Source of the DNA: a virus
Strand: one strand, 5' to 3'
IMG/VR virus record: IMGVR_UViG_3300037882_000094
Location: 1-40,349 of that record
DNA: 40,349 bases
Shown here: positions 1 through 40,349 of the stretch, piece by piece
Layout: every line of letters begins with the position of its first letter
Position numbering within the stretch: position 1 is the stretch's first letter
Made by a program: the position numbers and the translations under genes
Notes under the pieces: model-generated
What the model was told of the DNA's origin: nothing
Seen by the model: only the letters and a program-made list of their open reading frames with translations
Database searches by the model: none

Positions 1-927
<927 letters not shown>

Positions 928-4016: not shown

Positions 4017-4484
4017 TTATGACTGTTGATTTATCATATTGATAATTTCTTCAGCTGAAGAAGCTTGATCAATACGAAGCATCGTGTCATCAAAACCAGC
4101 AGGGGATTGAGCATTAGCAGTAATAGCATCTATTTGACGAAGAGCAGATAGATCTGGTCCTTTGTCTTCTTGCTTTGCTACTAATCCAAAGATGTCTGCA
4201 TTTTCCTTAATCCAATTATCAACAGCCTCTGGCGTTGATTCTAAATCGGAAGGAATGAATTTAGCTATCTTTGGGCTTACACCCTTGCTTTCCAAAACTG
4301 ATTTGATTGTACTTTCGCGTTGTACAGAACGAAGTTGTCCTAGTTCGGACTCTAGTTCCTTGATTCGCTTTTCTTTTGCGCGATCTACTTTGCGAAGTTT
4401 CTTAACGAGATCATTTGGTTCTTGGCTATCGTTATCCAATTCCTGATCTTCGTCATCTTCCCAGTCTTGATAATTGTTGCTCAT
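4017..4484 (-). CDS. Scaffolding protein
   Basis: Track ORF 4017-4517. The likely true start is the ATG at 4484 (MSNNYQDWEDDED...), with GGGAG 7 nt upstream. The protein is highly acidic/charged and helical (KKLRKVDRAKEKRIKELESELGQL) and lies immediately upstream of the capsid gene. Confidence 0.7.
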   Translation of the reverse strand: MSNNYQDWEDDEDQELDNDSQEPNDLVKKLRKVDRAKEKRIKELESELGQLRSVQRESTIKSVLESKGVSPKIAKFIPSDLESTPEAVDNWIKENADIFGLVAKQEDKGPDLSALRQIDAITANAQSPAGFDDTMLRIDQASSAEEIINMINQQS

Positions 4485-4603
4485 TGCAACGCTCCCATTC
4501 TTTGTTGTTAGTCGCAAGCCTCACAATAAATCGGGGAAAATATTGTGGCTCTTGCTACCAGTCTTTTACTCCTGCAGAGGCTGGTCGATTCTGCTAGGGG
4601 GTT

Positions 4604-5767: not shown

Positions 5768-6952
5768 TTACATAAATCCCAACTCTGATAAAACTTGAGT
5801 ACTAAAAGTTGCAGCCTTTTCCCTAAACTTAGGGGTGTATTCTGCACCTGGTTTTGTTCCTAAATAATTTTGCCATTCGTCATAGCTTGGAAGTTTTTGT
5901 TGTTGAGATAACCATTTAACATCTGGATCATCCCAAGGGTTTGGAGATAATGATGGAACACCATAGAAATTTGCTTTGAATGATTGATATCCACCAAGTA
6001 CTTCAGATGGTTTATAGCCTGCTTCAATATATGGAGCTAATGCAGGATTTTGTAAAGCAGATAGTTTTTGAATCTTTAATGCAGTATCCTGTAAACCAGT
6101 CTTACTCTTAGCAGTATTTAAAAGATATTCAAGTCTTGTCTTAGGATCTATCTTAACATTATAGTCTGACAATAATGTATCAACTTGTTTTAGGTTAGTT
6201 CCTAGTTGTCCACCAACATTAGCTAATCCTTCAACGGTTACATCTTTACCAATTAAACTTAAAGCAACTTGTTCTTTATCGGCTTCGTCTACACCAGCTT
6301 TAGTTACTACTGTCCTAGTTTTACCACCAGAGGTAGTTGTAGTTTGAGTTTGTACATTTGCTTTTTCTGCAGCATTAAGTTTATTATAAAACTCTTGTGC
6401 TTTCTTTGGATCAGCAACTTGACCTGTTAGATCTGTATAGAACTGATTAAAGTATTGAAGTGCTTCTTGCTTGCTTGTTAGATAGAGTGTTTCATAAACA
6501 GATGCTCCGCCTTTGCCACCTTGCACAGCAGAGTTATCAACGAATTGAGCAATGTCACCTGGTGCGCCAGCAGGATTAGCAACTACTAAAGTTGAATAAG
6601 CATCCCAAGCATCAAGAACTGCTTTTCTATAGTTATCAACTTGTTGCTGAGTATCTAATCTACCATTGGCTTTTATGTTCTTATAGCCAGCTTTAATGAA
6701 TTGATTTTGGACTACTTTAATCTTTTCAGGACTTTGATCAAAGAATAAGGCAAGAGCAGCTTGTTGAGTTACTGGAACCACTTCGGTAATTAATTGATTA
6801 CCTGAATATCTTTTTACAACTTGGTAATAACTTTTACCAGAGGTAGCACCTGTTGCTGTTGGAACAGGAGGCAATGCTTCTGCTGCATCGTCTGGAGTAA
6901 TAACTGGTTGATTAGTTATATCGTCAAGACCGTCTCCGTTTAAGTCTGCCAT
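5768..6952 (-). CDS. Virion internal-type protein (394 aa) with an N-terminal DLNGDGLDD Ca-binding-like motif
   Basis: Track ORF, contiguous with its neighbours with no gap. The N-terminus MADLNGDGLDD resembles DxNGDGxxD calcium loops. Confidence 0.5.
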   Translation of the reverse strand: MADLNGDGLDDITNQPVITPDDAAEALPPVPTATGATSGKSYYQVVKRYSGNQLITEVVPVTQQAALALFFDQSPEKIKVVQNQFIKAGYKNIKANGRLDTQQQVDNYRKAVLDAWDAYSTLVVANPAGAPGDIAQFVDNSAVQGGKGGASVYETLYLTSKQEALQYFNQFYTDLTGQVADPKKAQEFYNKLNAAEKANVQTQTTTTSGGKTRTVVTKAGVDEADKEQVALSLIGKDVTVEGLANVGGQLGTNLKQVDTLLSDYNVKIDPKTRLEYLLNTAKSKTGLQDTALKIQKLSALQNPALAPYIEAGYKPSEVLGGYQSFKANFYGVPSLSPNPWDDPDVKWLSQQQKLPSYDEWQNYLGTKPGAEYTPKFREKAATFSTQVLSELGFM

Positions 6953-9900
6953 TATTCTCCTATTAGTGGATCAAATAAAGTTCTGTATGCTGCTAAAGCT
7001 TGATCATCGCTTCCTGCATATTCGAGCATTAATTCTAAAGCATCTTTTCTAAGGTTCTTACGATAAGCAACTTCCTCATCGGTTCTACCTTGAACTGCTT
7101 GGAATTTAGATGTAAACTCATTGTAGAGTTTCATCATCTTTACTAACTTTTGATTAGAATCTGTATTAGGCATATCGCCTTTTTCATACATATTATAAAG
7201 TTCAGTAATTGTATTCTTCTTAGCTTGATCGTTTCTCACGATATTGTCTAAGTAAACTTGAACGTGTGGGTTCTGTGCTCTGTATTGCTTAGACCAAGAT
7301 TCCCATCTAGCTTGCAATGCTTTCTTCTCAGCAGGAGATTGGGCATTAGTAATATCTAAATCAGAGAAGTTCTTTACTTGTCTCCAGTAGAAGTAATCTT
7401 CAAAAGTATTTGCTTCAGCAGCAAACTTTTCAATAGTCTTCATTTCACTAAAGCCTTGGTCTTGCAAGAAAGCATAAGCTTCTAGATCGTATTTGCCATT
7501 AGATGGAACGATAAATCTAACTGCTTCTGGATAGGCATTAACTAATCTCTTATTGCCCTTAATCCATTCAACAGCTTCTTGAGTAGCTTTAACTGTACCA
7601 ATACCAGTCTTTTCAGATTCTGTTAAAGTATAGATTGCTTTACCTGGAAATAGTTTGCTCCACTTGTATTGAGCTTTATCAATACCTAATGGATCATTAC
7701 CATATTGCTCTACTAGCTTTTGGAACTCAGGTTTTAAGTTAGTAATGTTACTTTGTTCACGTACCCACTCTGGAACATCTAATCCAAAGTCTGCTTGAGG
7801 GGAAGCAGGTGCAACTAAACCAAACATATTTCTAGCAACTACAACATTTCGTGCAGTAGCGTTTACATATTGGTTATACTTCATTACAGCAGCAGCGCGT
7901 TCTTCTCCGCCCTTAACTGCTTGGTCAATAAACTTTTTCATTATGCCATTTGCTGCATAATACATATGTGCTTTACGTACAGCAGAAGCGTATTGAGAAG
8001 CTTTCTCATCAAAATTAAAGAATGAATTATAGAATCTATTAATAGAAGTAGGAAGTAATAGTTCTGGAAGTGTTCTATCTACAGAATACTTACCAAGAAC
8101 TTTCTTTCTAAACGCCATCTGTTCTGATTCAGGCAACCATTGTTCAATAGCCCATATTAATGTTGCAGATATAGGACCACTGAGTGTTGGAATGCCTGCT
8201 TCTGGATCTAATGATGGAGTAAGCATTGACATCTTGCCAGTGAATTGTGCTGGTTGTGGTTGTCTTAGGGCATTTTCTTGACCTAATAATCTCATACCTA
8301 AACCAACAGCAGTAAAGATTATTTCATCACCAGGGTAAACAAAGTATGGTTCACCTTGATCATCTCTGTGAATCCAACCAGTGTCTTCTAAACCTGTAGT
8401 AAGTAATCTAAATTTAGCAATAGCTAATGGATCGTAGCGTACTACTCTGCCAGCTCTTCTATAAAAATCTTCTGTTGCTCTGTAATAACGAGCAAGGTTA
8501 CGCATAGTGAATGCAAGATTTGTTCTAACATTAGGATTATCTACATATTGTAATGTTCTATTTGTAGCCAAATCACCAGCAATATTAGATGCCCACTTGC
8601 TTGCAGTGTTTTCTGCAGCATCTCTAGACATTCCTTGAGCAACATAACGTTCAGCCATATCTGCTTCAGCAGTAATTAAACGTTTACGAAATACTTGATA
8701 GTTTGCAAATAGAGCTGGTTCACGACCAAGCACACTAATCTGCTTACCCATCCAGTTCATAGCCCAGGACATTCCTTTGCCCCAAGCTTCAACTAGATTA
8801 CTTGCTGCTGTAGTAGGAATGTATTTGATACCTAGTATTGTTTCTGGTCTTTCAAGTTTAACAAACTCATCTAGATCTCTAATGGTAAGATTTTCAGCAT
8901 TAATGTCTAATCTTGATTTACCAGTAGTAGGATCTATAACAGTCTTACGTACTTTGTTAATAAGCTTTTCGTTTAATAAACCATTGTTCTTAGTGAATGG
9001 ATGTACGATAAACTTGTATTGTCTTCTAGCAAACTCTTCAGGACCAACAGCTTTGAATAGAACAAACTTGTTCATAATCTCTGGGTTCTTTTTAAAGTTC
9101 TCAACTAAAGCTTTAACAGCTTTATCTTCATTGTATATGTTAGCAAGAACAATTTTGCCCCAACCTAAGTTAGTTTGATGATTCAATCTTAACTTAATTT
9201 GGGTTAACCAACCAATATCAAATCCATAATCACCATTTCTAATGGTGTCAAATTCGCCAGTTGATCTTATTTTAGAAGCAGCTTCTTCAGCTCTAAAGTT
9301 CCATTGAGTAATAGGACCATAGATCTTTTCTGCCCTTAATGCTAATTGATCACTTGCTGCTTCTGTTAAATTAAGAGTTGCTAAAGCACCCTCATTGATT
9401 TCATCTAAAGCAGCAGTTCCATAAGGCAATGAGAACCAGTCATCTACCCAACGCTCTACAGTTTTAGTATCAAAACCACTTAATAACATAACTGCTTTGT
9501 TGCGAGCAACGTTCTTAGCAATTAATGCTGGTAGTTGGCTTGGATCTTGTTGTAAAAGTTTTCTTTGTGCTGGTGTAATCTTTGATTCACCAGAACGTAG
9601 GAATGTTGCCATCATACGATTGATGAAACCAAGACCTGCTTCACCATAAGTTGCATAACGATATTCGTTAGATATCTTCTTACCGATTAATATTCTATGT
9701 AAGTCACCAAATGGAACTGCAATACCGAATAAACCTAATTCTTCAATAGCAGATCTGATACCTAAACGTGGGATAAGGGTAGCCCAGGACCAACCATTAA
9801 CAATCTTTTGTCCTAGATACCTACTTGTACCAATAAGTTTAGAGTTAGCTTCTATTGACCATTTAGCAAAGTTCGGCATAGCAACCTTGTTGCTTAGTTG

Positions 9901-12312
9901 CCAGTAACCTAAAGCGTATTGTGAGTCACCTAATTGTGCAGGGTTATATGCAGTCTGTCCTAGACGTTGTGCAACCTCTTCAGCACTTGGGAATGCTTTT
10001 GCTACATAGTTAAATACTTGATCAAAGTCAACTACTTCAAATCCATCAATATTCTTACTTAGTTGTGTACCTAGTTTTTTGTCATTAGAGATTGCATCAT
10101 ATACAGTTCCAAGTATTTGTTGGAACTCGTATTGATCTACGTCTTCTAATACACCTTTGCGTAGAATATCGGTATAGGTATTAACATCATCTGTAGAGTA
10201 TCCAGCACGAAATAGTGCTCCTCTAATTTCTTTAGCAACATCATCGCCAGTTGCTTTTCTATAGGTCTTACTCTTATTAACTAAGCCACCTATTTTTTTA
10301 TCTAGGTTTCCTATTTGTTCTTTAAGAGTATCAATCTCTGTAAAAGTAGCATTGTTGATTTCAAGTTGTTTTAGTTTAGCTTTAAGATCTTTCTTTAGTG
10401 TTCTTGCTTCTTTTAATTGTGTATTAAGATCTGCTAATGCACCTTTAGATAAGGAAGCAGTAGTTGCTAATTGAGTCTCAGTTAAACCAGTACGTCTGCC
10501 TAGGTTTGATACTTTACCTAAAGCAGTAGATCCTTTTGAGAAAGCTGTTAAGTCTTCTGAGTATAGTTGTGTTCCAGTACGATTGTACAGTTTACCAATC
10601 TCATCATCAGTAAGACCAAACTTCTTGCCCACGTTAATAGCGATACCATCAAATAGTCTTAAACGAGTAGCAACATCGCCTTCGCGCCAAGCTTGTTTAA
10701 TGATATTAGCGTGATATGGATCTACAATTAATCTAGACATTCTAAATATATCTGTGGCAGACTCAGCAGTATCTAAAACAATCTCTTTACCAGTTACTGC
10801 TTTGCTAAAGATTTTGTTTAAGTTACCAGCAGCACTTCTAAATTGTTTTAAGTCACCAATGTTTTCAAAGTTACGTGCTAATTCATCTGCATCATTCCAC
10901 ATTGCTGGAAGATCTGGAGCTTTACGTAGTCCCATTAAAGCTGCAGTTGTATTACGAAGATTCTTAGCAGTGCTTGCAAAAACAGTTTTACGTGGCATTA
11001 ATGGTTCTACGCCACCAGCACGACCCATACTAATAAGTTCAGTTACGCCAGCATTTTTTAAATATGATAATGCAGAGTCTGAATCTCTTACACCAGCTTT
11101 AGCAAGTTGTTCAATAAAATCTACAGCAACTATTTCACTGGCATCATCTGCTACTTTTTTAGTAACATCAACACCAAAATCTCTACCTAAATCAGCAGCA
11201 ATTTGTGCTTTAGTTTTTAAATCTTTTGATGCTGCGTATTGTCCAACTTTAGCGCCAACTTCGTTCCAGTAATTTCTAACACTGGCTGCTTTGAACATTT
11301 TGTCTAAGCCTGTTGATAATTTAATACCATCAGCACCAGCAAGTTTCATTAAACCAAAACGAGCAACTTTAATAGCAGATATTGCTTTAGTTAATACAAT
11401 GCTTGGGTCTGTTGCAACTAAGAATGCTGCATCAGTAAGACCTGAAACAACATCATAGCGATCTGGAATCTTACTTTTGCGATCATATTCTCTTAAACCA
11501 TAAGCAAGATCTCTACCAGGACTTACTTTAGCGTGATCAAAATCATCAATAGCTTTGAATACTTCGCTTTGTTTTCCATTTTGTGGATCCATATAAGCGA
11601 TTAAAGCTTGTTCTTCTTCAGGTGTTTCAACTAAAGACATAATTTCTTGAGGAGCTTTATCCATTGCAAATAGTTTTGCAACTTTAGAAACGGCTGGAGA
11701 GTACTTAGACTCTACTTCTTTTTCTTTGTCTTTATCAAAGTATTGTTCACCATTGAATGTGGTGTTCCATTGATCAGCAGTTAAGAATGCTTCAAATGAA
11801 TTTTGAGTTTTATCTTTACCTGGAGTAATTCTAATACCAGAAGGGAACATTCCAGCACCTGGTACTAAAGGAGTTTGTGCAACTCTTTCCTGAACACCAG
11901 CAAATTGTGCTTGAGCTTCTGGACTTGTATTTAGTTGTTCTTGTTTTAAGTTAGAAACTCTGTAAAGGTTAGTTTGGGTCCAAGCATACTTTTGAAAACC
12001 GTTAAGTAGTTCTCCAAAGCTTGGTATATTAGTAGCTGATTTAAGTTTTTGCCAACTAGATACTTTAGCTTTGCTATAGTTCTGCTCACCCATAAAGTCA
12101 ATTAGTGCTTGACGATTGGTTTCAGGAAGCCTTTGGAATGAGGTGCGAGCCTCTGCATCTGGCAATCCAATAAAAGATTTATGTTGTTGTAATAATCTAG
12201 ATGCTGCAGCAGCACGTCTTAATGTATCATCAGAAGCATTTGATTGCTTTAATGAATTATAAACTTGTGGAGAAGTATTCCAGATTAATGAGCCAATGCT
12301 GTCGTCAGACAT
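6952..12312 (-). CDS. Giant virion-associated protein (1786 aa, function unknown)
   Basis: Single uninterrupted track ORF covering about 13% of the genome, between the portal and the scaffold. It has a central coiled-coil-like stretch (LNTQLKEARTLKKDLKAKLKQLEINNATFTEIDTLKEQIGNLDKKIG). I found no HExxH, polymerase or lysozyme motif by eye. Confidence 0.6.
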   Translation of the reverse strand: MSDDSIGSLIWNTSPQVYNSLKQSNASDDTLRRAAAASRLLQQHKSFIGLPDAEARTSFQRLPETNRQALIDFMGEQNYSKAKVSSWQKLKSATNIPSFGELLNGFQKYAWTQTNLYRVSNLKQEQLNTSPEAQAQFAGVQERVAQTPLVPGAGMFPSGIRITPGKDKTQNSFEAFLTADQWNTTFNGEQYFDKDKEKEVESKYSPAVSKVAKLFAMDKAPQEIMSLVETPEEEQALIAYMDPQNGKQSEVFKAIDDFDHAKVSPGRDLAYGLREYDRKSKIPDRYDVVSGLTDAAFLVATDPSIVLTKAISAIKVARFGLMKLAGADGIKLSTGLDKMFKAASVRNYWNEVGAKVGQYAASKDLKTKAQIAADLGRDFGVDVTKKVADDASEIVAVDFIEQLAKAGVRDSDSALSYLKNAGVTELISMGRAGGVEPLMPRKTVFASTAKNLRNTTAALMGLRKAPDLPAMWNDADELARNFENIGDLKQFRSAAGNLNKIFSKAVTGKEIVLDTAESATDIFRMSRLIVDPYHANIIKQAWREGDVATRLRLFDGIAINVGKKFGLTDDEIGKLYNRTGTQLYSEDLTAFSKGSTALGKVSNLGRRTGLTETQLATTASLSKGALADLNTQLKEARTLKKDLKAKLKQLEINNATFTEIDTLKEQIGNLDKKIGGLVNKSKTYRKATGDDVAKEIRGALFRAGYSTDDVNTYTDILRKGVLEDVDQYEFQQILGTVYDAISNDKKLGTQLSKNIDGFEVVDFDQVFNYVAKAFPSAEEVAQRLGQTAYNPAQLGDSQYALGYWQLSNKVAMPNFAKWSIEANSKLIGTSRYLGQKIVNGWSWATLIPRLGIRSAIEELGLFGIAVPFGDLHRILIGKKISNEYRYATYGEAGLGFINRMMATFLRSGESKITPAQRKLLQQDPSQLPALIAKNVARNKAVMLLSGFDTKTVERWVDDWFSLPYGTAALDEINEGALATLNLTEAASDQLALRAEKIYGPITQWNFRAEEAASKIRSTGEFDTIRNGDYGFDIGWLTQIKLRLNHQTNLGWGKIVLANIYNEDKAVKALVENFKKNPEIMNKFVLFKAVGPEEFARRQYKFIVHPFTKNNGLLNEKLINKVRKTVIDPTTGKSRLDINAENLTIRDLDEFVKLERPETILGIKYIPTTAASNLVEAWGKGMSWAMNWMGKQISVLGREPALFANYQVFRKRLITAEADMAERYVAQGMSRDAAENTASKWASNIAGDLATNRTLQYVDNPNVRTNLAFTMRNLARYYRATEDFYRRAGRVVRYDPLAIAKFRLLTTGLEDTGWIHRDDQGEPYFVYPGDEIIFTAVGLGMRLLGQENALRQPQPAQFTGKMSMLTPSLDPEAGIPTLSGPISATLIWAIEQWLPESEQMAFRKKVLGKYSVDRTLPELLLPTSINRFYNSFFNFDEKASQYASAVRKAHMYYAANGIMKKFIDQAVKGGEERAAAVMKYNQYVNATARNVVVARNMFGLVAPASPQADFGLDVPEWVREQSNITNLKPEFQKLVEQYGNDPLGIDKAQYKWSKLFPGKAIYTLTESEKTGIGTVKATQEAVEWIKGNKRLVNAYPEAVRFIVPSNGKYDLEAYAFLQDQGFSEMKTIEKFAAEANTFEDYFYWRQVKNFSDLDITNAQSPAEKKALQARWESWSKQYRAQNPHVQVYLDNIVRNDQAKKNTITELYNMYEKGDMPNTDSNQKLVKMMKLYNEFTSKFQAVQGRTDEEVAYRKNLRKDALELMLEYAGSDDQALAAYRTLFDPLIGE

Positions 12313-17735: not shown

Positions 17736-18098
17736 ATGAAGAAGCAATTAACAGAAGAAGAACTACGACAGAAGCGCGAATACTTAAAAGAATTAGTCGC
17801 GATAACTAGCGACTATCTCGAGAAGTACGGCGATATAGAGAGAGTCGTGAAGTTATCGAATGTAGAAGAGCCTTACTCTGCTCGCAATTCCTTGCTAATA
17901 AAGCTTCAAGATCCAGGCGCGACAATATGCGCAGGGTTCTTAGAGTGGAAGAAGCAGGGTAGAAGCGTTAAGCGTGGCGAGACTGGGCGAATAATCTTAG
18001 TTCCGATAATCTTTAAGAATAATAAGGAGGAAGATAAAGTTAGATTTAAGTCGGACTATGTATTCGATATTAGCCAGACAGAAGAACTAAGTATCTAG
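17736..18098 (+). CDS. ArdC-N-like (DUF1738-type) ssDNA-binding / putative anti-restriction protein
   Basis: YSARNSLLIKLQ...GFLEWKKQGRSVKRGETGRIILVP...FKSDYVFDISQTE parallels the ArdC N-domain pattern Y.G.N.LLL...W.TFKQ...G..VRKGEKG..I...VFN..Q. There is no metalloprotease half. Confidence 0.6.
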   Translation: MKKQLTEEELRQKREYLKELVAITSDYLEKYGDIERVVKLSNVEEPYSARNSLLIKLQDPGATICAGFLEWKKQGRSVKRGETGRIILVPIIFKNNKEEDKVRFKSDYVFDISQTEELSI

Positions 18099-20035: not shown

Positions 20036-20275
20036 ATGTTTGATACAACTGATGCACTATGTAAGGAGATCGGAAGCGATATCTTCTTTCCAGAAAAGCA
20101 CGAAGCTTATCTAACAAAATATGCTAAGTGGGTCTGTAAGAGATGTCCTTTGATCCAGGAATGTAGGGAATATGCAATGAAAGATATAGATATAGTCGGG
20201 ATCTGGGGTGGAACTTCTACTCTAGAAAGAAACAATTTAAGGTGGAGAAAAGGTGTCAGAAAAAGAGCAAGCTGA
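20036..20275 (+). CDS. whiB: WhiB-like Fe-S transcription factor
   Basis: Four Cys in the pattern C9...C34-x2-C37-x5-C43, a GIWGGT turn, and a basic tail (RWRKGVRKRAS). These are canonical Wbl features. Confidence 0.85.
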   Translation: MFDTTDALCKEIGSDIFFPEKHEAYLTKYAKWVCKRCPLIQECREYAMKDIDIVGIWGGTSTLERNNLRWRKGVRKRAS

Positions 20276-25571: not shown

Positions 25572-25934
25572 ATGGATAAGCCACCAATAACTGAGGTGCT
25601 TAAACATTACGGAGCAAAGAACGTTAGAGAAGATGTAAGAGGATGGCGCAAGATTTGTTGCCCCTTTCACAACGACTCAATAGCTTCTGCTACTTACTCA
25701 ACAGAAGCAGATGCGTTTAATTGTTTCGGTTGTGGAATTAAAGGCGACAGTTATAAGATTATTATGGAGAGAGAAGGGATAGGCTTTCGTGAAGCTTACT
25801 TATTCGCAGAAGAAACATTTGCAGGAAGCAGTAGAGAAGTACAACCAAAATCTATCTCTGGCAGAAGATTACCTGTTGCAAAGAGGCTTGACTCTAAAAG
25901 ACGCAAACCGTTATTTGCTAGGGGTAGTGACTGA
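25572..25934 (+). CDS. DnaG-type primase, CHC2 zinc-finger part (frame 0)
   Basis: CCPFHNDSIASATYSTEADAFNCFGCGIKGDSYKII...GIGFREA. The tail after about 25815 looks like out-of-frame filler. Confidence 0.75.
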   Translation: MDKPPITEVLKHYGAKNVREDVRGWRKICCPFHNDSIASATYSTEADAFNCFGCGIKGDSYKIIMEREGIGFREAYLFAEETFAGSSREVQPKSISGRRLPVAKRLDSKRRKPLFARGSD

Positions 25935-26406
25935 TCCACTACCAGGACACGAACTTTATAAAGACAGATTAGTTATTCCCTACATCACTAGAACTGGCAT
26001 AGTTGATATCAGATTTAGATCAATGGATAACACTGAGCCTAAGTATCTGGGATTGCCAGGAGCTAGCACACATCTATTCAATGTGTCAGCTTTGTTCAGA
26101 GCTAATGATTGGATTGCTGTTTGTGAAGGTGAGATTGATACCATCACACTTGATGCCAAGGTAGGCTTTCCTACTATCGGAGTTCCAGGAGCAAACAACT
26201 GGAAGAAGCATTACTACAAGTTGCTAGCAGACTTTGAAAGAATCATTATCTTTGCAGATGGTGATCAAGCAGGGCAAGACTTTGCCAGACAGTTGGCAAA
26301 AGAACTAGGTACTGTTACAATTATCTCAATGCCAGAAGGCGAAGATGTTAACAGCATCTATGTTGCGAAGGGTGCTGATTATTTTAAATCAAAGGTGGCA
26401 TCTTGA
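25789..26406 (+). CDS. DnaG-type primase, RNA-polymerase/TOPRIM part (frame +1; overlaps the previous ORF by 146 nt)
   Basis: LAEDYLLQRGLTLKDANRYLLGVV, VCEGEIDTITL (TOPRIM Glu) and IIFADGDQAGQ (DxD). The track start is GTG 25789, and the frame is open from 25783. Confidence 0.75.
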   Translation: MKLTYSQKKHLQEAVEKYNQNLSLAEDYLLQRGLTLKDANRYLLGVVTDPLPGHELYKDRLVIPYITRTGIVDIRFRSMDNTEPKYLGLPGASTHLFNVSALFRANDWIAVCEGEIDTITLDAKVGFPTIGVPGANNWKKHYYKLLADFERIIIFADGDQAGQDFARQLAKELGTVTIISMPEGEDVNSIYVAKGADYFKSKVAS

Positions 26407-27829: not shown

Positions 27830-28480
27830 ATGAAACTAGATCACGAATTAATAGAAGAATATAATTACTTAGTCACACGAATCGCCAATGATTACAATAG
27901 AAAATATAAGATGGTTCCCAGAGATGATATCAAACAACAACTCTGGTTATGGTTTATTGAACATCCCCATAAAGTAAAACAGTGGACTGATATGGAAGAC
28001 AAAAAAGAAACAACTAAATTGTTTGCCAGATCTTTACGCAATGCTGCTCACGACTATTGTCAAAGAGAGAAAGCATACTCAGCAGGATTTAATATAGAAG
28101 ATAACTTTTATTACCAAAGAGATATGGTTGAAGTATTATTGCCAGCAGTTATTAGTGGTGATAGAACAATAGGATCTTCAGCAGATCTAAACCTAGGTGT
28201 CTCAACTGGTAAAGCACCAGCAGAGGGTGGCAACTGGATGGTGTATCTCATTGACATTGAGAAAGCATTCAACAAAATTCCAGAGCAATATCAAAATGTG
28301 CTACACCTTAGATATGCAGAGAACCTGTTAGGCAATGACCTAAGTTCAGTACTCAACTGCTCTCCAGATGCAGCACGAAAGAGAGTAGATAAAGCTTTAA
28401 GAAAGCTGATTCAAGAGCTTGGTGGCTTTAGACCATACAAAGATCACGATGCTAAAGTCCAGGAAGAATCTGCAGAATAA
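27830..28480 (+). CDS. Sigma-70-family (ECF-like) sigma factor
   Basis: Region 2-like ...DIKQQLWLWFIEHP... and region 4 HTH ...QNVLHLRYAENLLGNDLSSVLNCSPDAARKRVDKALRKLIQEL. It is the last gene of the middle operon. Confidence 0.7.
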   Translation: MKLDHELIEEYNYLVTRIANDYNRKYKMVPRDDIKQQLWLWFIEHPHKVKQWTDMEDKKETTKLFARSLRNAAHDYCQREKAYSAGFNIEDNFYYQRDMVEVLLPAVISGDRTIGSSADLNLGVSTGKAPAEGGNWMVYLIDIEKAFNKIPEQYQNVLHLRYAENLLGNDLSSVLNCSPDAARKRVDKALRKLIQELGGFRPYKDHDAKVQEESAE

Positions 28481-28747: not shown

Positions 28748-29749
28748 TTATTTATTTCTCCTTATGACCGATGCTGCTAGTTGTGGTAAGATAATTACTG
28801 CAAGAACTACCTGCTGAGCTTCTTTGCGATTCTCTTCAGATAGATCAGAACCAAGATTGGAAATGATGTCTAATGCAGCAGTTATGGTTTCAGATATTTG
28901 TTGGAGTGCTTCTTGCAAATTCTGTGATAAAAATTCTGGAAGAAATCCAAGGACAGATTCAGTTTCATCTGTGGAAAAAATCTCTTGAGGCACGTCTTCA
29001 AAAGAAGGTAACTCGTTCTCCAAAGAAGAAGGGAAATCGTTAGATGACGAATCAACAATTACTTCTAAAGTATCTTGAACATCTGGAGTTGGAAGTTCAG
29101 TCGGCTGTAAAAACTCTACAGAAGGTACAGGGTCTGGCTCGTTTGGCTCTGGACCTGGATCAACTGGAACCTCTGGAGATGTTGATGGCTGAGGAGTATC
29201 AGTCGGTAACGGAGAAGGAGAAGAAGGCTCAACAGTTGGCTCAGGAGTTGGCGAAGATGAAGACTGAGTTGGGGTTGGACTAGGTGAACTTGTTTCAGAA
29301 GGTGTTACTTCTACTGTTGGCGTGGGGCTTGGTGTCACTACTATTAAGTTAGTAGATAACAAATAAGAACCAGTAGGATATTGGTTGCAACAAGTATAAG
29401 CATAAGATGTTGCACGAATAAAATATTCACCAACAGCTAAGGGCATAGTGATGATAGATGCTAAAACATTTGTACCAGAATGAGCACCATCATCATTGTA
29501 AGCAATGCGAACAGTGTCTTGCCAAAGCTCAATCCAAGAATCAATAAAGCCAGGATTAGTTTGAGGAGTACCAGTAGTGGTTGATATAGTTGCATCAACA
29601 GGTTCACTAACAGTTACTGGTATATCCACATAAGGTGTAGTAGAATCTAGATTAATAGTCACATCATCAGAGTATGATGGATTAGCAATAAGAGTAGTAA
29701 GGATAAAGATAGCTATGACGGATAATAATTTAGACATTTGGATGACCAT
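28748..29749 (-). CDS. Secreted, C-terminally anchored surface protein: signal peptide + PPC-like beta domain + Pro/Ser/Thr linker + acidic region + TM tail
   Basis: MSKLLSVIAIFILTTLIANPSYS (signal peptide; alternative ATG at 29737). ...SWIELWQDTVRIAYNDDG...GEYFIRATSYAY resembles a pre-peptidase C-terminal domain. PSPTPTVEVTPSETSSPSPTPTQSSSSPTPEPTVEPSSPSPLPTDTPQPSTSPEVP is the linker. The C-terminus is VVLAVIILPQLAASVIRRNK. Confidence 0.6.
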   Translation of the reverse strand: MVIQMSKLLSVIAIFILTTLIANPSYSDDVTINLDSTTPYVDIPVTVSEPVDATISTTTGTPQTNPGFIDSWIELWQDTVRIAYNDDGAHSGTNVLASIITMPLAVGEYFIRATSYAYTCCNQYPTGSYLLSTNLIVVTPSPTPTVEVTPSETSSPSPTPTQSSSSPTPEPTVEPSSPSPLPTDTPQPSTSPEVPVDPGPEPNEPDPVPSVEFLQPTELPTPDVQDTLEVIVDSSSNDFPSSLENELPSFEDVPQEIFSTDETESVLGFLPEFLSQNLQEALQQISETITAALDIISNLGSDLSEENRKEAQQVVLAVIILPQLAASVIRRNK

Positions 29750-30305
29750 TCCAAGTGGAACGCGCCGTCAATACTTGCAAGATATAATTCAAGATAGTAA
29801 TATTCCCCCTGAAAAAATTGTAATAGTACACACAGTTGAATCAGAACCAATAGATGGTGTTAATAATATCTGGGATTTAGAACCAGTGAATATCCACAGA
29901 TGGTGGAACAGAGGCATAGATGTAGCCAGAACATTTGGTGCTGATTATATAGCTGTACTAAATGATGATTTAAAATTAAAGAATGATCCTATAAATAAGA
30001 TTGCTAGAAGTATGAAAGAACTAAATGCCATACTTGGCTATCCTTTACCTTACACAGGTGCGATAGCAGGGTACTGCTGGGTGCTTGATATTAAATCAAA
30101 CATTAGAGCAGATGAAAATCTTAGGTGGTGGTACGGAGATAACGACATTCAATACAAGGCAGCAATGCAAGGAGAATTTATCTATGTGCCTTGTGAGGTA
30201 GAGCACATTCATCCAAATGAATTGACAAGCAGTAATCCAGATCTAATAGAATTAACTAAAGCAGATCAAAGATACTTTGAAGAAAAGTGGGGTACATTAC
30301 TATGA
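29715..30305 (+). CDS. Small GT2-like glycosyltransferase
   Basis: YIAVLNDDLKL (DxD-type) and WWYGDNDIQYKA are blocks typical of small phage GT-A enzymes. The alternative start is ATG 29742. Confidence 0.6.
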   Translation: MTDNNLDIWMTIPSGTRRQYLQDIIQDSNIPPEKIVIVHTVESEPIDGVNNIWDLEPVNIHRWWNRGIDVARTFGADYIAVLNDDLKLKNDPINKIARSMKELNAILGYPLPYTGAIAGYCWVLDIKSNIRADENLRWWYGDNDIQYKAAMQGEFIYVPCEVEHIHPNELTSSNPDLIELTKADQRYFEEKWGTLL

Positions 30306-30835
30306 CAACAATACTTGGACTACAAGCACCAGATCACTGTCTACTTATAGCAGACTCACGGATAACTGATGATGGAGGAAGAACCTACACACATCCAACA
30401 GTTTCTAAAATTACTAAGCGTGGAAAATATCTAATAGCAGGAGCTGGAACTACACAGCCTTGCGATATTATTCAACACGTATGGAAACCACCTGCTCCTA
30501 CACCTGCATCATATAAAGATCTATATCACTTTATGATTGCAGATGTTGTGCCAAGTATGAAGATGACACTATCAGTTAATGGCTATCAACCAGATAAAGA
30601 ATCAACTGAACCAGACTTTATATTCTTAATAGCATTAGGTGGAACTATCTTTGAACTAGATGATTCACTCTCGGTATTGATGAGAGATGATGGAATCTAT
30701 GGCATAGGATCTGGCTCTCCATATGCCATAGGCGCATTACAAGCTGGAGCTAACTGGAGAAAAGCTATGCAGATTGCAGCAAAGAATAATGTCTTTACTG
30801 CTGCTCCATTTATTACACATAAACAAACTAAATAA
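30302..30835 (+). CDS. Ntn-hydrolase, HslV / proteasome beta-subunit-like
   Basis: The ATG at 30302 overlaps the glycosyltransferase stop (ATGA) and gives MTTILGLQAPDHCLLIADSR..., i.e. Thr directly after Met as in HslV (TTIV). KYLIAGAGT and GIYGIGSGSPYAIGALQAG parallel the HslV GSGG.YA block. Confidence 0.6.
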   Translation: MTTILGLQAPDHCLLIADSRITDDGGRTYTHPTVSKITKRGKYLIAGAGTTQPCDIIQHVWKPPAPTPASYKDLYHFMIADVVPSMKMTLSVNGYQPDKESTEPDFIFLIALGGTIFELDDSLSVLMRDDGIYGIGSGSPYAIGALQAGANWRKAMQIAAKNNVFTAAPFITHKQTK

Positions 30836-31528
30836 CTAATTAATTACTGAAGTGCCACGATACTTGTGACCTTCAAGGCTATAGTTAATAAAAGGATTAA
30901 GACTATAGACATTGCAACCATAAACTTCTTGAAGCTTTTGTTTTAATTGAATACTTTGAGCTTCAAATAAAACGGCACGGCTTTTAACATTATTAATGTA
31001 TTCTTCATCATCAAGCATAGTGTCATAAACATAGCCATCAACCCAAGCTTTATCATCAAGTTCACCACAGTCGTGTGCTACAAGAATAATATTCTTAGCA
31101 CCAAGATGTGCAGCCAGATGAATAGCAGAGGTTATACTAGACCAAGAAACAACCAGATGATTGTCCCCAGTAGGGAACTCATTTAATATATTAGTTTGTT
31201 TATCAAAGTTTTCGTTATGCTCAAACTCATACAAGTTATCAAACTCGTCAGATAATTTACCAGCACCATTGGCACCAGTATTACCATAAGAACAAACAAT
31301 CTTAACATCAGGCATATGTCTAGCCCAATGTTGTGCATCACTATGATACTTAGTAACAATGTAATTAGTAGTTGGTAAATATGATTCACCAACATTATTA
31401 ACACATACAGTTATCTTGTCTTTAAAAAATTCTTTGTCTATAAAGTTTAATGTTGGACCTGAACCTATCACATAAATGTCTTTATCTTTATGTTTGTTTT
31501 TTAATTCAGATACAGGTCTTAAACCCAT
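30836..31528 (-). CDS. GT42 / DUF115 (Cst-II / Maf)-like putative nonulosonic-acid-type glycosyltransferase
   Basis: DIYVIGSGPTLNFID (compare the GNGPSL..ID of Cst-II / MAF_flag10) and SSITSAIHLAAHLGAKNIILVAHDCG (compare TSG...A..LG.K.I.L.G.D). Confidence 0.5.
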   Translation of the reverse strand: MGLRPVSELKNKHKDKDIYVIGSGPTLNFIDKEFFKDKITVCVNNVGESYLPTTNYIVTKYHSDAQHWARHMPDVKIVCSYGNTGANGAGKLSDEFDNLYEFEHNENFDKQTNILNEFPTGDNHLVVSWSSITSAIHLAAHLGAKNIILVAHDCGELDDKAWVDGYVYDTMLDDEEYINNVKSRAVLFEAQSIQLKQKLQEVYGCNVYSLNPFINYSLEGHKYRGTSVIN

Positions 31529-38247: not shown

Positions 38248-39137
38248 CGACTGTAGTGAATCCTTATTGGGTATCTATCTCTCAGTTTTCTTGACTCCTC
38301 ATCTAGTCTTTGTGTATACAAAGCTAATAAGTATCTTGCAGCATTAGTGCCAGCATTAGAAGGAATCTTGTTTGATTGAATATCTGCTTCAGGTGCTGTA
38401 AGAGTTAAGCGACCTGGATCAATCATAGATGCCATACGATAAGCTGCACCATAAACAATTACATCTTTGCAAGACAAAGGCAACCCAGTAACATCCTCAT
38501 AATCGTCTTGATCTATTTCAAAAGTATCAGGGTTAGTTGTGTAGAATACTTGAACAGTTCTTCCTGGAGTAATTACATCATAGATTGACAAAGATATGTT
38601 TGAATTAAATTCTGTAGTGTTAGCCATTGGATCTATGCGCCAAGATCTAACTGGATACCATTCCTCGGTTGGACCAGTAGATTGCCAGGATACAGCTAAT
38701 ACTTTTTCAACATCATTAGGTAAAGGATAAGTTAGCTGTGCTGGAGTGTAATCAAAAGTATATGTTCCTGTAGAGAATAATGTTTCTCCTACAGCTAAAA
38801 CTGTGTCGTTAATTGCTTTCTTAATATTGTTTCTAGGATAAGTTGGTTTAACAATAACTTGTGTACCAGAAGTATGGGAAGACTTTGTTGTACCTAAATA
38901 GCCTCTGCCGTAAGGTGGGATGGTGATAACACCTGTTGACTTGTTGTATGAGTCAACCCAAATAAGTTCATCATCAATTTGGATAATACCTTTAGCAACA
39001 TTGTCTGCTGATGCTAAAGTCATACTTGTAGCAGTTGAGGTCACATTAGCAGTTAAATGTGTTGACCTGTCTTGACGTAAAGTAAAACCTTGAAGGTTTA
39101 ACGCTACCTCATCAACCAGTTCTTTAAACGTTGGCAT
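38244..39137 (-). CDS. Virion structural protein (297 aa; adaptor/tail, role uncertain)
   Basis: Track ORF that overlaps both neighbours. Contains IIQIDDELIWV...GRGYLGTTKSSHTSGTQV. Confidence 0.45.
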   Translation of the reverse strand: MPTFKELVDEVALNLQGFTLRQDRSTHLTANVTSTATSMTLASADNVAKGIIQIDDELIWVDSYNKSTGVITIPPYGRGYLGTTKSSHTSGTQVIVKPTYPRNNIKKAINDTVLAVGETLFSTGTYTFDYTPAQLTYPLPNDVEKVLAVSWQSTGPTEEWYPVRSWRIDPMANTTEFNSNISLSIYDVITPGRTVQVFYTTNPDTFEIDQDDYEDVTGLPLSCKDVIVYGAAYRMASMIDPGRLTLTAPEADIQSNKIPSNAGTNAARYLLALYTQRLDEESRKLRDRYPIRIHYSR

Positions 39138-40182
39138 TATTCTTTTGCATCCATTCTAAATTATCTATCAATCTTTTCTCACTAGGATTACCTTGTACTG
39201 CCTTTTTTCCATATTCAATAGCTTCATCTTTTTTGCCTAGATACCAGCCAGCTATAGCTAAAAGATCAAAACACTTCCAATTCCAAACATCATCATTAAC
39301 TAGATAATGCTTTTCCTTTTGTAATGTTTCTACCTTTAATGCTGAGTCCCAACATCCTTGCCAATTCTTTACTTCATAATTAAATTGAGCTAATGAGTAC
39401 CAGGCTTCTAGTTGATCTGGTGCTTCTTTCACACCCTTAACAAACCAATCTCTAGCCATCTCTTTATTGTTTAACATAACAAAAGCTTGTGCTGCTGCCC
39501 TACAGGTTGCAGCACGTTCAATGTACCAACCACCTGCTTTAAGCATTTCTTCTGCAGCTTCAATAGTTTCTTTCCACTTACTGTGGAAGAAATATTCTCT
39601 AGCTAGATAAGCCCACATTCTTGCATCTTGTGGAGTCTCGGCTACTGCCATCTGAAGCATTGGAAGATATTGAGATCTAGACTTAGAATCATCTGGTCTG
39701 TGTCTTACTACTGAATGAACTACAGCACTTTTTTCTTCTCCACCAAAGAAGTCACCATAATATTCTGTGACTTCGTGGCAAGGCTTAACCCAACGATATC
39801 CATATCTTGAATGCAATCTGTTATTATTTTGCCATTCAAAACCTGTTTCCCAAGTAATCCACATACGATTAATCTCAGGATTCCAAACCTTTTTGATCTC
39901 TTTGAATAAATCTTCATCAGGTATTTCATCAAGATCTAAAGATAAACACATATCTATATCATCAGGAACTAAAGCTAGGGAAGCATTGCGAGCATCATCA
40001 AACCTAAATGGTTTGACACTGATGTCGTGTACTATTACACCCTCTGCTCTAAGAAGTTCTTGTGTGCCATCTGTAGATCCTGTATCAGCTACTATCCTGA
40101 TATCAGCATCTTTAGTTGCATCAGCCCAACGCTTAGCGTGTTTGGCTTCATTTAAAGCAATTGCATATACAGCTATTTTCAT
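39124..40182 (-). CDS. GT2-family glycosyltransferase fused to TPR repeats
   Basis: KIAVYAIALNE, ADTGSTDGTQELL, FRFDDARNASL and CLSLDLDE form a GT-A/DxD core. The C-terminal half has TPR-like repeats (ARMWAYLAREYF..., EAWYSLAQFNYE..., IAGWYLGKKDEAIEYGKKAV). Confidence 0.75.
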   Translation of the reverse strand: MKIAVYAIALNEAKHAKRWADATKDADIRIVADTGSTDGTQELLRAEGVIVHDISVKPFRFDDARNASLALVPDDIDMCLSLDLDEIPDEDLFKEIKKVWNPEINRMWITWETGFEWQNNNRLHSRYGYRWVKPCHEVTEYYGDFFGGEEKSAVVHSVVRHRPDDSKSRSQYLPMLQMAVAETPQDARMWAYLAREYFFHSKWKETIEAAEEMLKAGGWYIERAATCRAAAQAFVMLNNKEMARDWFVKGVKEAPDQLEAWYSLAQFNYEVKNWQGCWDSALKVETLQKEKHYLVNDDVWNWKCFDLLAIAGWYLGKKDEAIEYGKKAVQGNPSEKRLIDNLEWMQKNNANV

Positions 40183-40202: not shown

Positions 40203-40349
40203 TTACATTCCACCAAGAAGTATTCCACCAACAAATAAATCATTAGTGTTAATTGTACCAGTCGCTCCAGTTGCACCAGTGGCTCCTGTTGCGCCTGTCG
40301 GTCCAGTTATTCCTGTAGCTCCAGTAACACCTGTCGCACCAGTTGCGCC
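40203..40349 (-). CDS. C-terminal end of the same collagen-like fibre gene (40251-40349 duplicates 1-99)
   Basis: The reverse complement of 40203-40250 reads AAC ACT AAT GAT TTA TTT GTT GGT GGA ATA CTT CTT GGT GGA ATG TAA. This is in frame with the triplets ending at base 1, so the C-terminus is ...[18 protein letters not shown]. Confidence 0.85.
40251..40349. repeat. Terminal direct repeat, copy B (identical to 1-99)
   Basis: Same 99 nt as the window start, read by eye. Confidence 0.95.

Follow-up and report, generated by a model that had tools for sequence, protein, structure and literature searches.

A proteasome-family hydrolase gene in a predicted freshwater actinophage is independent of the glycosyltransferase gene that precedes it

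Results

A plus-strand island of two overlapping genes

We analyzed a stretch of viral DNA of 40,349 nucleotides (nt), positions 1 to 40,349 of the IMG/VR record IMGVR_UViG_3300037882_000094 (the window), and focused on two adjacent genes in it, open reading frame 1 (ORF1), coding for a predicted glycosyltransferase (GT), and ORF2, coding for a hydrolase of the proteasome family. ORF1 is located at 29715..30305 on the plus strand and encodes 196 amino acids (aa) from an ATG start. ORF2 is located at 30302..30835 on the same strand, encodes 177 aa, and begins with MTTILGLQAPDHCLLIADSR. The ATG of ORF2 sits on the TGA stop codon of ORF1, and the two genes thereby share an ATGA start/stop overlap at 30302..30305. 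They form a plus-strand island flanked by minus-strand genes. The upstream neighbor (28748..29749) diverges from ORF1, and the two starts overlap by 35 nt, which leaves no intergenic room for promoters. The downstream neighbor (30836..31528) opens a long minus-strand block, and its stop codon abuts that of ORF2. A scan for sigma-70 promoters and terminators was uninformative (5 sites versus 10.9 expected), with one weak plus-strand site at 29561-29590, upstream of ORF1. From a collection of 5.8 billion proteins, 155 homologous clusters at 90% identity were obtained for ORF2 and 204 for ORF1, and therefore both are real genes and not chance ORFs. The first-pass annotation, which was made from the letters of the window, had described a plus-strand pair standing alone between minus-strand genes with an ATGA at 30302. 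These coordinates were reproduced, and the peptides quoted from ORF2 (MTTILGLQ, ADSR, AGAGT and GIGSGSPYAIGAL) were all found in the protein.

Fold and catalytic residues of ORF2

ORF2 matched PHROG 1040 (‘peptidase HslV family’) at 7e-29. When a profile of 35 ORF2 homologues was searched against the PDB, the bacterial protein BPH came first (5ovu, 3.3e-10; 5ovs, 1.5e-7), and was followed by HslV and the 20S beta5 subunit. Precomputed matches to the Pfam Proteasome family (PF00227) are also present on several of the homologues. The AlphaFold2 model of ORF2 had a predicted local distance difference test score (pLDDT) of 95 and a predicted template modeling score of 0.90. In a Foldseek search of this model against the PDB, BPH, HslV and 20S beta subunits were on top, with E values of 3e-10 and weaker, template modeling (TM) scores of 0.65-0.76 and a probability of 1.00. 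Among the viral structures of BFVD, 42 representatives had the ORF2 fold at E <= 1e-3, with TM scores up to 0.89. In the model, helices H1-H4 are kept, with H2 formed by residues 74-92, and there is neither a propeptide nor a C-terminal H5 helix.

Seven residues, T2, T3, D18, K36, G49, G136 and G138, were invariant across the 35 homologues, and S137 was present in at least 90% of them. Thr2 (codon at 30305..30307; this and all the following codons are on the plus strand) is the predicted N-terminal nucleophile, corresponding to Thr1 after removal of the initiator Met. Asp18 (30353..30355), which aligns to D17 of HslV, is the equivalent of Asp17 in the proteasome catalytic triad, and Lys36 (30407..30409) is that of Lys33. 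Gly49 (30446..30448), within the sequence IAGAG, corresponds to the oxyanion-hole residue Gly47, and G136-S137-G138 (30707..30715), within GIGSGS, to the GSG active-site loop of proteasome beta subunits and HslV, aligning with the GSG of both HslV and BPH. The catalytic residues of ORF2 likewise aligned with Thr1, Asp17, Lys33, the Gly47 region and the GSG loop of BPH. In the sequence that we take to be that of E. coli HslV, the Thr1, Asp17, Lys33, Gly47 and GSG positions also matched ORF2. An acidic loop, residues 93-106 (NGYQPDKESTEPDF; 30578..30619, plus strand), follows H2 at the position of the ‘pore loop’ of the proteasome and BPH, with the boundary of H2 taken from the model. This loop was net negative in 34 of the 35 homologues, and its charge and length averaged -2.9 and 14 residues.

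The start of ORF2 is fixed, because the stop codon of the upstream gene overlaps it. Among the best 149 representatives of the wider family at 50% identity, the residue after the start codon was Thr in 127 and Ser in 5, and the rest were fragments or had doubtful upstream extensions. These results indicate that ORF2 is a proteasome-family (T1-like) N-terminal nucleophile (Ntn) hydrolase of the BPH/HslV-like type. The first-pass annotation had proposed a proteasome/HslV-type Ntn hydrolase with a Thr directly behind the initiator Met, and it was borne out in each respect: the PHROG, profile and Foldseek searches all matched Ntn hydrolases, the start does not lie farther upstream, and the equivalents of Thr1, Asp17 and Lys33 (T2, D18 and K36) are conserved.

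Occurrence of ORF2 homologues in phages

Relatives of ORF2 were found by tblastn in 99 GenBank phage records, many of which are annotated as ‘peptidase HslV family’, ‘ATP-dependent protease subunit’, ‘Ntn_hydrolase-like protein’ or ‘protease’. The IMG label on the ORF2 protein itself is ‘ATP-dependent protease HslVU (ClpYQ) peptidase subunit’. Homologous proteins are encoded by phapecoctaviruses and by Microbacterium, Aeromonas and Vibrio phages. The wider family comprised 9118 representatives at E <= 1e-3, 3293 at <= 1e-10 and 80 at <= 1e-30. In GTDB, where 185,579 species genomes were scanned, only two ORF2-type loci were found, and one of them is a phage-like contig (terminase, portal and protease gene) binned into a Saccharimonadales metagenome-assembled genome (MAG). 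Because this contig is phage-like, the GTDB scan provides neither cellular relatives nor a link to a host. The close subfamily of ORF2 is essentially viral. The occurrence of HslV without HslU was already remarked on in a jumbo-phage paper, and Fuchs, Alva and Lupas (2021) described the phage proteasome homologues PPH, AAH and CPH (PMC8665760), with the reference sequences WP_035979212 and WP_008185288 for AAH and CPH. Proteasome-like proteases are thus already known in phages and ORF2 adds a further one; the impression in the first-pass annotation that such a hydrolase is unfamiliar in phages is contradicted by PHROG 1040, the 99 GenBank records, the 2021 study and the IMG label.

A homologue of 232 aa was also observed at 8001-8699 of a phage-like contig of 134 kb (NCBI GCA_046464045.1; L105), where it is again a solitary plus-strand gene, flanked by minus-strand SNase, Dam, ThyX, resolvase and HNH genes. 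It has a predicted N-terminal extension ahead of an internal MTT, which may be a miscalled start.

Position of the protease gene in related phages

The proteins of the window were mapped onto 80 IMG/VR loci carrying the protease gene, and the counts given here are of loci that were not dereplicated. The gene lies behind the Toprim primase gene and before the metallophosphoesterase gene in 33 of the 80 loci, behind the DnaB helicase gene and before that of SSB in 13, and between the Zn-ribbon and Toprim ORFs of the primase in 5 (L058-L062), which places it inside the replication module in 51 loci. It directly follows the portal gene in 8 loci, and likewise in Planktophila phage E7 (L001) and the MAG contig L083. 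Only 13 loci have the arrangement of the window, with the protease gene after the GT gene, and the remaining 8 show other contexts. Where an ORF1 homologue (48% identity) was detected in the primase-linked loci, it was located 3-4 kb off and mostly on the opposite strand, often beside a homologue of the 30836 gene. Thirteen loci were retrieved via the DnaB helicase; in L090, no protease gene was present between the helicase and tail genes, on a stretch that stops short of the post-portal site.

Among the relatives with sizeable flanks, the closest are L101-L104, which encode a protease 90% identical to that of the window on DNA of about 86% identity. They keep the gene order of the window and lack both ORF1 and the 30836 gene, each by a clean indel. 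In place of the 586 nt of ORF1, they have about 49 nt with a GGGAG ribosome-binding site. Because of these GT-free loci and the varied positions described above, we regard the protease gene as an autonomous, often relocated cassette. The gene is mobile and independent of the GT gene. The latter is a cassette of its own in the same hypervariable island, which lies between the sigma factor gene and the lysis and tail genes.

The ATGA overlap can be viewed in the same light. An ATGA or GTGA overlap was kept in 13 of 13 GT-containing loci. The upstream ORF, whichever gene stands there, ends on the TGA of the Met-Thr start in 62 of 81 related loci. A Met-Thr start (ATG/GTG ACN) always offers a TGA in the +1 frame, and since varied upstream genes use this same TGA, the overlap is no special feature of the GT gene. 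The first-pass annotation had attached meaning to the coupling and called for a check of the co-occurrence of the two genes in related phages; the outcome, adjacency in only 13 of 80 loci and a clean loss of the GT gene in L101-L104, goes against it. The GT-protease gene pair is a case of ordinary phage mosaicism.

The protease of the window was further compared with those of L002-L032 and L034-L057. Many primase-linked copies from otherwise distant phages, with flanking genes that are mostly 24-60% identical, share 81-84% identity with it. Identity is only 75-77% to copies in phages that have tail and lysis genes 90-99% identical to those of the window. These identities suggest that the protease cassette underwent allelic exchange.

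ORF1 and the glycosylation-type genes

No match to ORF1 itself was found in Pfam (including PF00535), PHROG or NCBIfam. One homologue with 57% identity (P0238) carries PF00535, and another is named GT2 by JGI. A sequence-only search of the PDB with an ORF1 profile returned spurious de novo TIM barrels through one repeated stretch of 29 residues, and was discarded; a structure model was therefore needed to call the GT-A fold. The AlphaFold2 model of ORF1 had a pLDDT of 91.4, and its Foldseek matches in the PDB were the GT-A enzymes 6p61 (E 1.5e-8, TM 0.64), ppGalNAc-T2, WrtF, K4CP and SunS/ThuS, which together spanned E values of 1.5e-8 to 1e-6 and TM scores of 0.60-0.72. N83-D84-D85 (29961..29969, plus strand), in AVLNDD after a hydrophobic strand, is a DxD-type motif for metal and nucleotide-sugar binding and was invariant in 30 homologues. 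An N-terminal strand with TIPxG...R and the residues G141-D142-x-D144 are invariant as well. As judged from the model, ORF1 is a small GT-A fold (GT2-like) glycosyltransferase, in agreement with the GT2-like call of the first-pass annotation. On the whole, this annotation was right about the identities of both genes, and not in its sense of novelty and the weight that it laid on the GT coupling.

Both neighbors of the island are minus-strand genes. The upstream one encodes a Ser/Thr/Pro-rich, secreted-looking protein of 333 aa without a match in Pfam, PHROG or PADLOC. Its N-terminus resembles a signal peptide, it includes a long linker rich in Pro, Ser and Thr, and its C-terminal tail is hydrophobic. 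In loci of the window type, its gene is conserved beside the protease gene. That this protein is a target of the phage glycosyltransferases is speculative. The downstream gene product is MptE-like or sialyltransferase-like (PF01973, 28.2 bits, below the cut-off; phrog_4603, 6.3e-7), and its homologue adjoins that of ORF1 in L002, L009, L011, L017 and L028. A third glycosylation-type gene is present at 39124-40182 (phrog_13126 ‘beta-1,4-glycosyltransferase’, with weak TPR-repeat matches). PADLOC gave no match on ORF1, ORF2 or either neighbor. The functional partners of the ORF1 glycosyltransferase are more probably the other glycosylation-type genes of the phage than the protease.

The phage genome and its host

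The two ends of the window (1-99 and 40251-40349) are an exact overlap of 99 nt, which indicates a circular assembly and a complete genome of about 40.25 kb. It encodes a terminase, a portal protein, a giant protein of 1786 aa, a scaffold-like protein (4017..4517) and the major capsid protein. Tail-fibre-type proteins and an M23 peptidase are also encoded. The replication module consists of exonuclease, DnaB helicase, SSB, RusA, a split primase and metallophosphoesterase genes. The split primase is made up of a Zn-ribbon ORF (25572-25934) and a Toprim ORF (25789-26406) on the plus strand, which share about 146 nt that are read in different frames. A WhiB-family regulator (20036..20275; Pfam 3.5e-17), a protein with an ArdC-N-like anti-restriction domain (17736-18098) and a sigma factor (27830-28480) are all encoded on the plus strand, and this set matches the hallmarks reported for Planktophila phages E7 and F5, for which the sigma factor, whiB and glycosyltransferases have been named (PMC10202952).

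A megablast search of the region against GenBank phages gave no match. The best phage relatives were OX376640/1 ‘LanE43-AprE7’, the genome of Planktophila phage LanE43AprE7 (E7). This phage is the first isolate on ‘Ca. Nanopelagicales’ (acI Actinobacteriota), and the words ‘protease’ and ‘proteasome’ are absent from the main text of the paper describing it (PMC10202952). The capsid protein of the window is 57% identical to that of Streptomyces podophages (Beephvirinae). WhiB and the kinship with E7 place the host in the Actinobacteria, and by its gene content and its phage relatives the window is a freshwater actinophage.

The giant ORF (6952-12312, minus strand) lies downstream of the portal gene, behind an ORF of 143 aa, and has no Pfam domain. 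It is kept at 25-30% identity in phage E7 and further relatives, and a gene of similar size, gp09, lies behind the portal gene of Streptomyces phage Immanuel3. Its product may be an internal or ejection protein.

Discussion

Proposed role of ORF2

We consider it rather probable that ORF2 is a stand-alone threonine protease, likely ring-forming, that works in the cytoplasm of the infected cell without a dedicated unfoldase and is an accessory gene product of freshwater actinophages. In the mechanism that we propose, the methionine aminopeptidase of the host would take off Met1 and expose Thr as the N-terminal nucleophile. This residue would work with D18 and K36 and with G49, as Thr1 does with Asp17, Lys33 and Gly47 in proteasome beta subunits. 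The protein would probably build HslV/BPH-like rings, and the rings would cleave peptides or proteins in the cytoplasm, a role outside the virion. They would do so without a phage-encoded unfoldase, since no AAA+ unfoldase was detected among the 49 ORFs scanned of the complete genome, and, given an actinobacterial host, without HslU. The ATGA coupling to the GT gene would be a by-product of tight gene packing. The independence of the protease gene from any module argues for a protein acting on its own.

Several points weigh against this proposal. The Pfam Proteasome match of ORF2 itself, 21.1 bits, does not reach the gathering cut-off of 22.4; the loci were counted without dereplication; and the proteolytic role of the phage members is read from their conserved residues only. 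The other points favor particular alternatives. One is that ORF2 is a prohead protease, which would mature capsid or internal proteins and would have moved out of the head module in the lineage of the window. The gene directly follows the portal gene, before those for a 143-aa and a giant (about 1770 aa) protein, in phage E7 (L001), L065, L067, L069-71, L079-81 and the MAG contig L083, and no other maturation protease was recognized in the complete genome of the window. Against this, the gene is found inside the replication module in most of the loci and in an accessory island in the window. Microbacterium phage LeeroyJenkins has such a ‘protease’ (gp16) in addition to a separate capsid maturation protease (gp25), and in Actinomycetia phage DSL-LC01 the protease gene lies among small genes beside whiB. 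The Streptomyces podophages with the related capsid protein have neither a match to ORF2 nor an annotated maturation protease in the stretch shown, and the scaffold-like protein of the window is present as in protease-less podophages. The first-pass annotation had argued that a gene outside the head module is unlikely to encode the prohead protease. This is probably right, although the argument from position suffers from the sister lineage, including phage E7, in which the gene stands right after the portal gene. In view of that post-portal position, we keep the prohead-protease reading, in a weakened form, at a low probability. Somewhat less likely still is an Ntn enzyme without proteolytic function. 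It might be a ligase/transpeptidase of the connectase type, or an amidase with a small molecule or cell-envelope material as its substrate. In connectase, ligase chemistry is built on the proteasome fold, according to the account of that enzyme in PMC8665760, and no proteolysis is known for BPH or any phage homologue. However, ORF2 keeps H1-H4 without the S3/S4 helical insertion that defines connectase, its triad and GSG loop are those of peptidases, and it has no signal peptide, which makes envelope substrates unlikely.

Two further alternatives appear very improbable. If ORF2 were a genuine HslV, it would dock on HslU of the host to make a hybrid ATP-dependent HslVU protease, and the IMG name, the HslV-like fold and the MTTI N-terminus agree with this. 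However, ORF2 scored 18.2 bits with TIGR03692 and 18.0 bits with NF003964, the NCBIfam equivalog models for HslV, which have cut-offs of 157.75 and 137, respectively. The ORF2 profile is nearer to BPH, for which no partner unfoldase is known. HslU is not encoded in the window genome, and the host is actinobacterial by WhiB and E7 kinship, a phylum not recorded with HslV in the phylum-level Table 1 of Fuchs et al. 2021 (PMC8665760). From the model scores and gene content, ORF2 is not a true HslV. A functional pair of GT and protease, for example in the maturation or degradation of a glycosylated substrate, is equally hard to maintain. In its favor, the overlap is kept wherever the pair occurs, and among the neighbors are a second glycosylation-type gene and the gene for the secreted-looking protein rich in Ser, Thr and Pro. 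The distribution largely refutes such a pair, since the protease gene is more often behind the primase gene than beside the GT gene, exists without it in L101-L104, and makes the same overlap with other upstream genes.

In a more specific version of a cytoplasmic role, which we find unlikely, if worth keeping in mind, freshwater actinophages would use the protease as a dedicated enzyme for host takeover or counter-defence. Such an enzyme might be a self-sufficient mini-proteasome or might hijack an actinobacterial AAA+ protein such as ARC/Mpa, Cpa or ClpX. It might break down a specific regulator or immunity protein of the host, or turn host protein into amino acids where hosts are nutrient-starved and have streamlined genomes. 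That the gene is highly mobile, keeps its active site strictly and frequently stands in the early/replication module fits this idea without proving it. If true, it would be the first function for any viral proteasome homologue.

A catalogue of viral proteasome homologues has existed since 2021, and the interest of the stand-alone protease proposed here lies in what it may tell about their substrate, oligomeric state and role. The ORF2 subfamily is abundant, as seen from the clusters at 90% identity and the 80 representatives at E <= 1e-30, has a strictly conserved active site, and is carried by phages whose hosts, freshwater Actinobacteria, are very abundant. A cultured pair, Planktophila phage E7 and its host LanE-43, carries a homologue, and the question can therefore be addressed at the bench. 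The present analysis also corrects an annotation, as ORF2 and proteins of its kind are labelled HslVU peptidase subunits in IMG, though HslU is missing from the phage genome and HslVU is not known from the host phylum.

Comparison with known enzymes

ORF1 has in common with the GT2-like GT-A enzymes (6p61, the catalytic domain of ppGalNAc-T2, WrtF and SunS) the fold, the TIPxG strand and the NDD motif, and at 196 aa it is a very small member of this type. ORF2 has the same fold as HslV (ClpQ), with the MTTI N-terminus, the D17/K33 and GSG motifs and a similar length. It differs from HslV in failing the equivalog models and in residing in a phage genome without HslU; moreover, the pore loop of HslV is very short according to Fuchs et al. 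(PMC8665760), whereas that of ORF2 is longer and acidic. BPH (PDB 5ovs/5ovt/5ovu; PMC5777263) is a protease homologue that forms a double ring, has an acidic, elongated pore loop and has no known partner unfoldase (PMC5777263; PMC8665760). It is the top match of ORF2 both by profile (3.3e-10) and by structure (TM 0.73-0.76). The two share a Thr right after Met, the absence of a propeptide and a compact subunit without H5, and the acidic loop after H2 in ORF2 recalls the pore loop of BPH. Their sequence identity is only 19-22%, however, and BPH is betaproteobacterial while ORF2 is viral and borne by an actinophage. BPH genes belong to stress-regulated cellular operons, in contrast to the phage-borne ORF2, and BPH is a tetradecameric double ring, whereas ORF2 is known from its sequence and a single-subunit model. 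PPH (Proteasome homologue of Phages and their Hosts) has about 140 aa and lacks H2. The PPH-type protein gp175 of phAPEC8 shows a gap at the H2 region in the alignment with ORF2, and a PPH-type assignment of ORF2 was ruled out by its length of 177 aa and the presence of H2. With the phage proteasome homologues and PHROG 1040, ORF2 has in common that it is phage-borne and of group I, and it belongs to the ‘group I’ proteasome homologues, the radiation that includes HslV, BPH, AAH, CPH and PPH.

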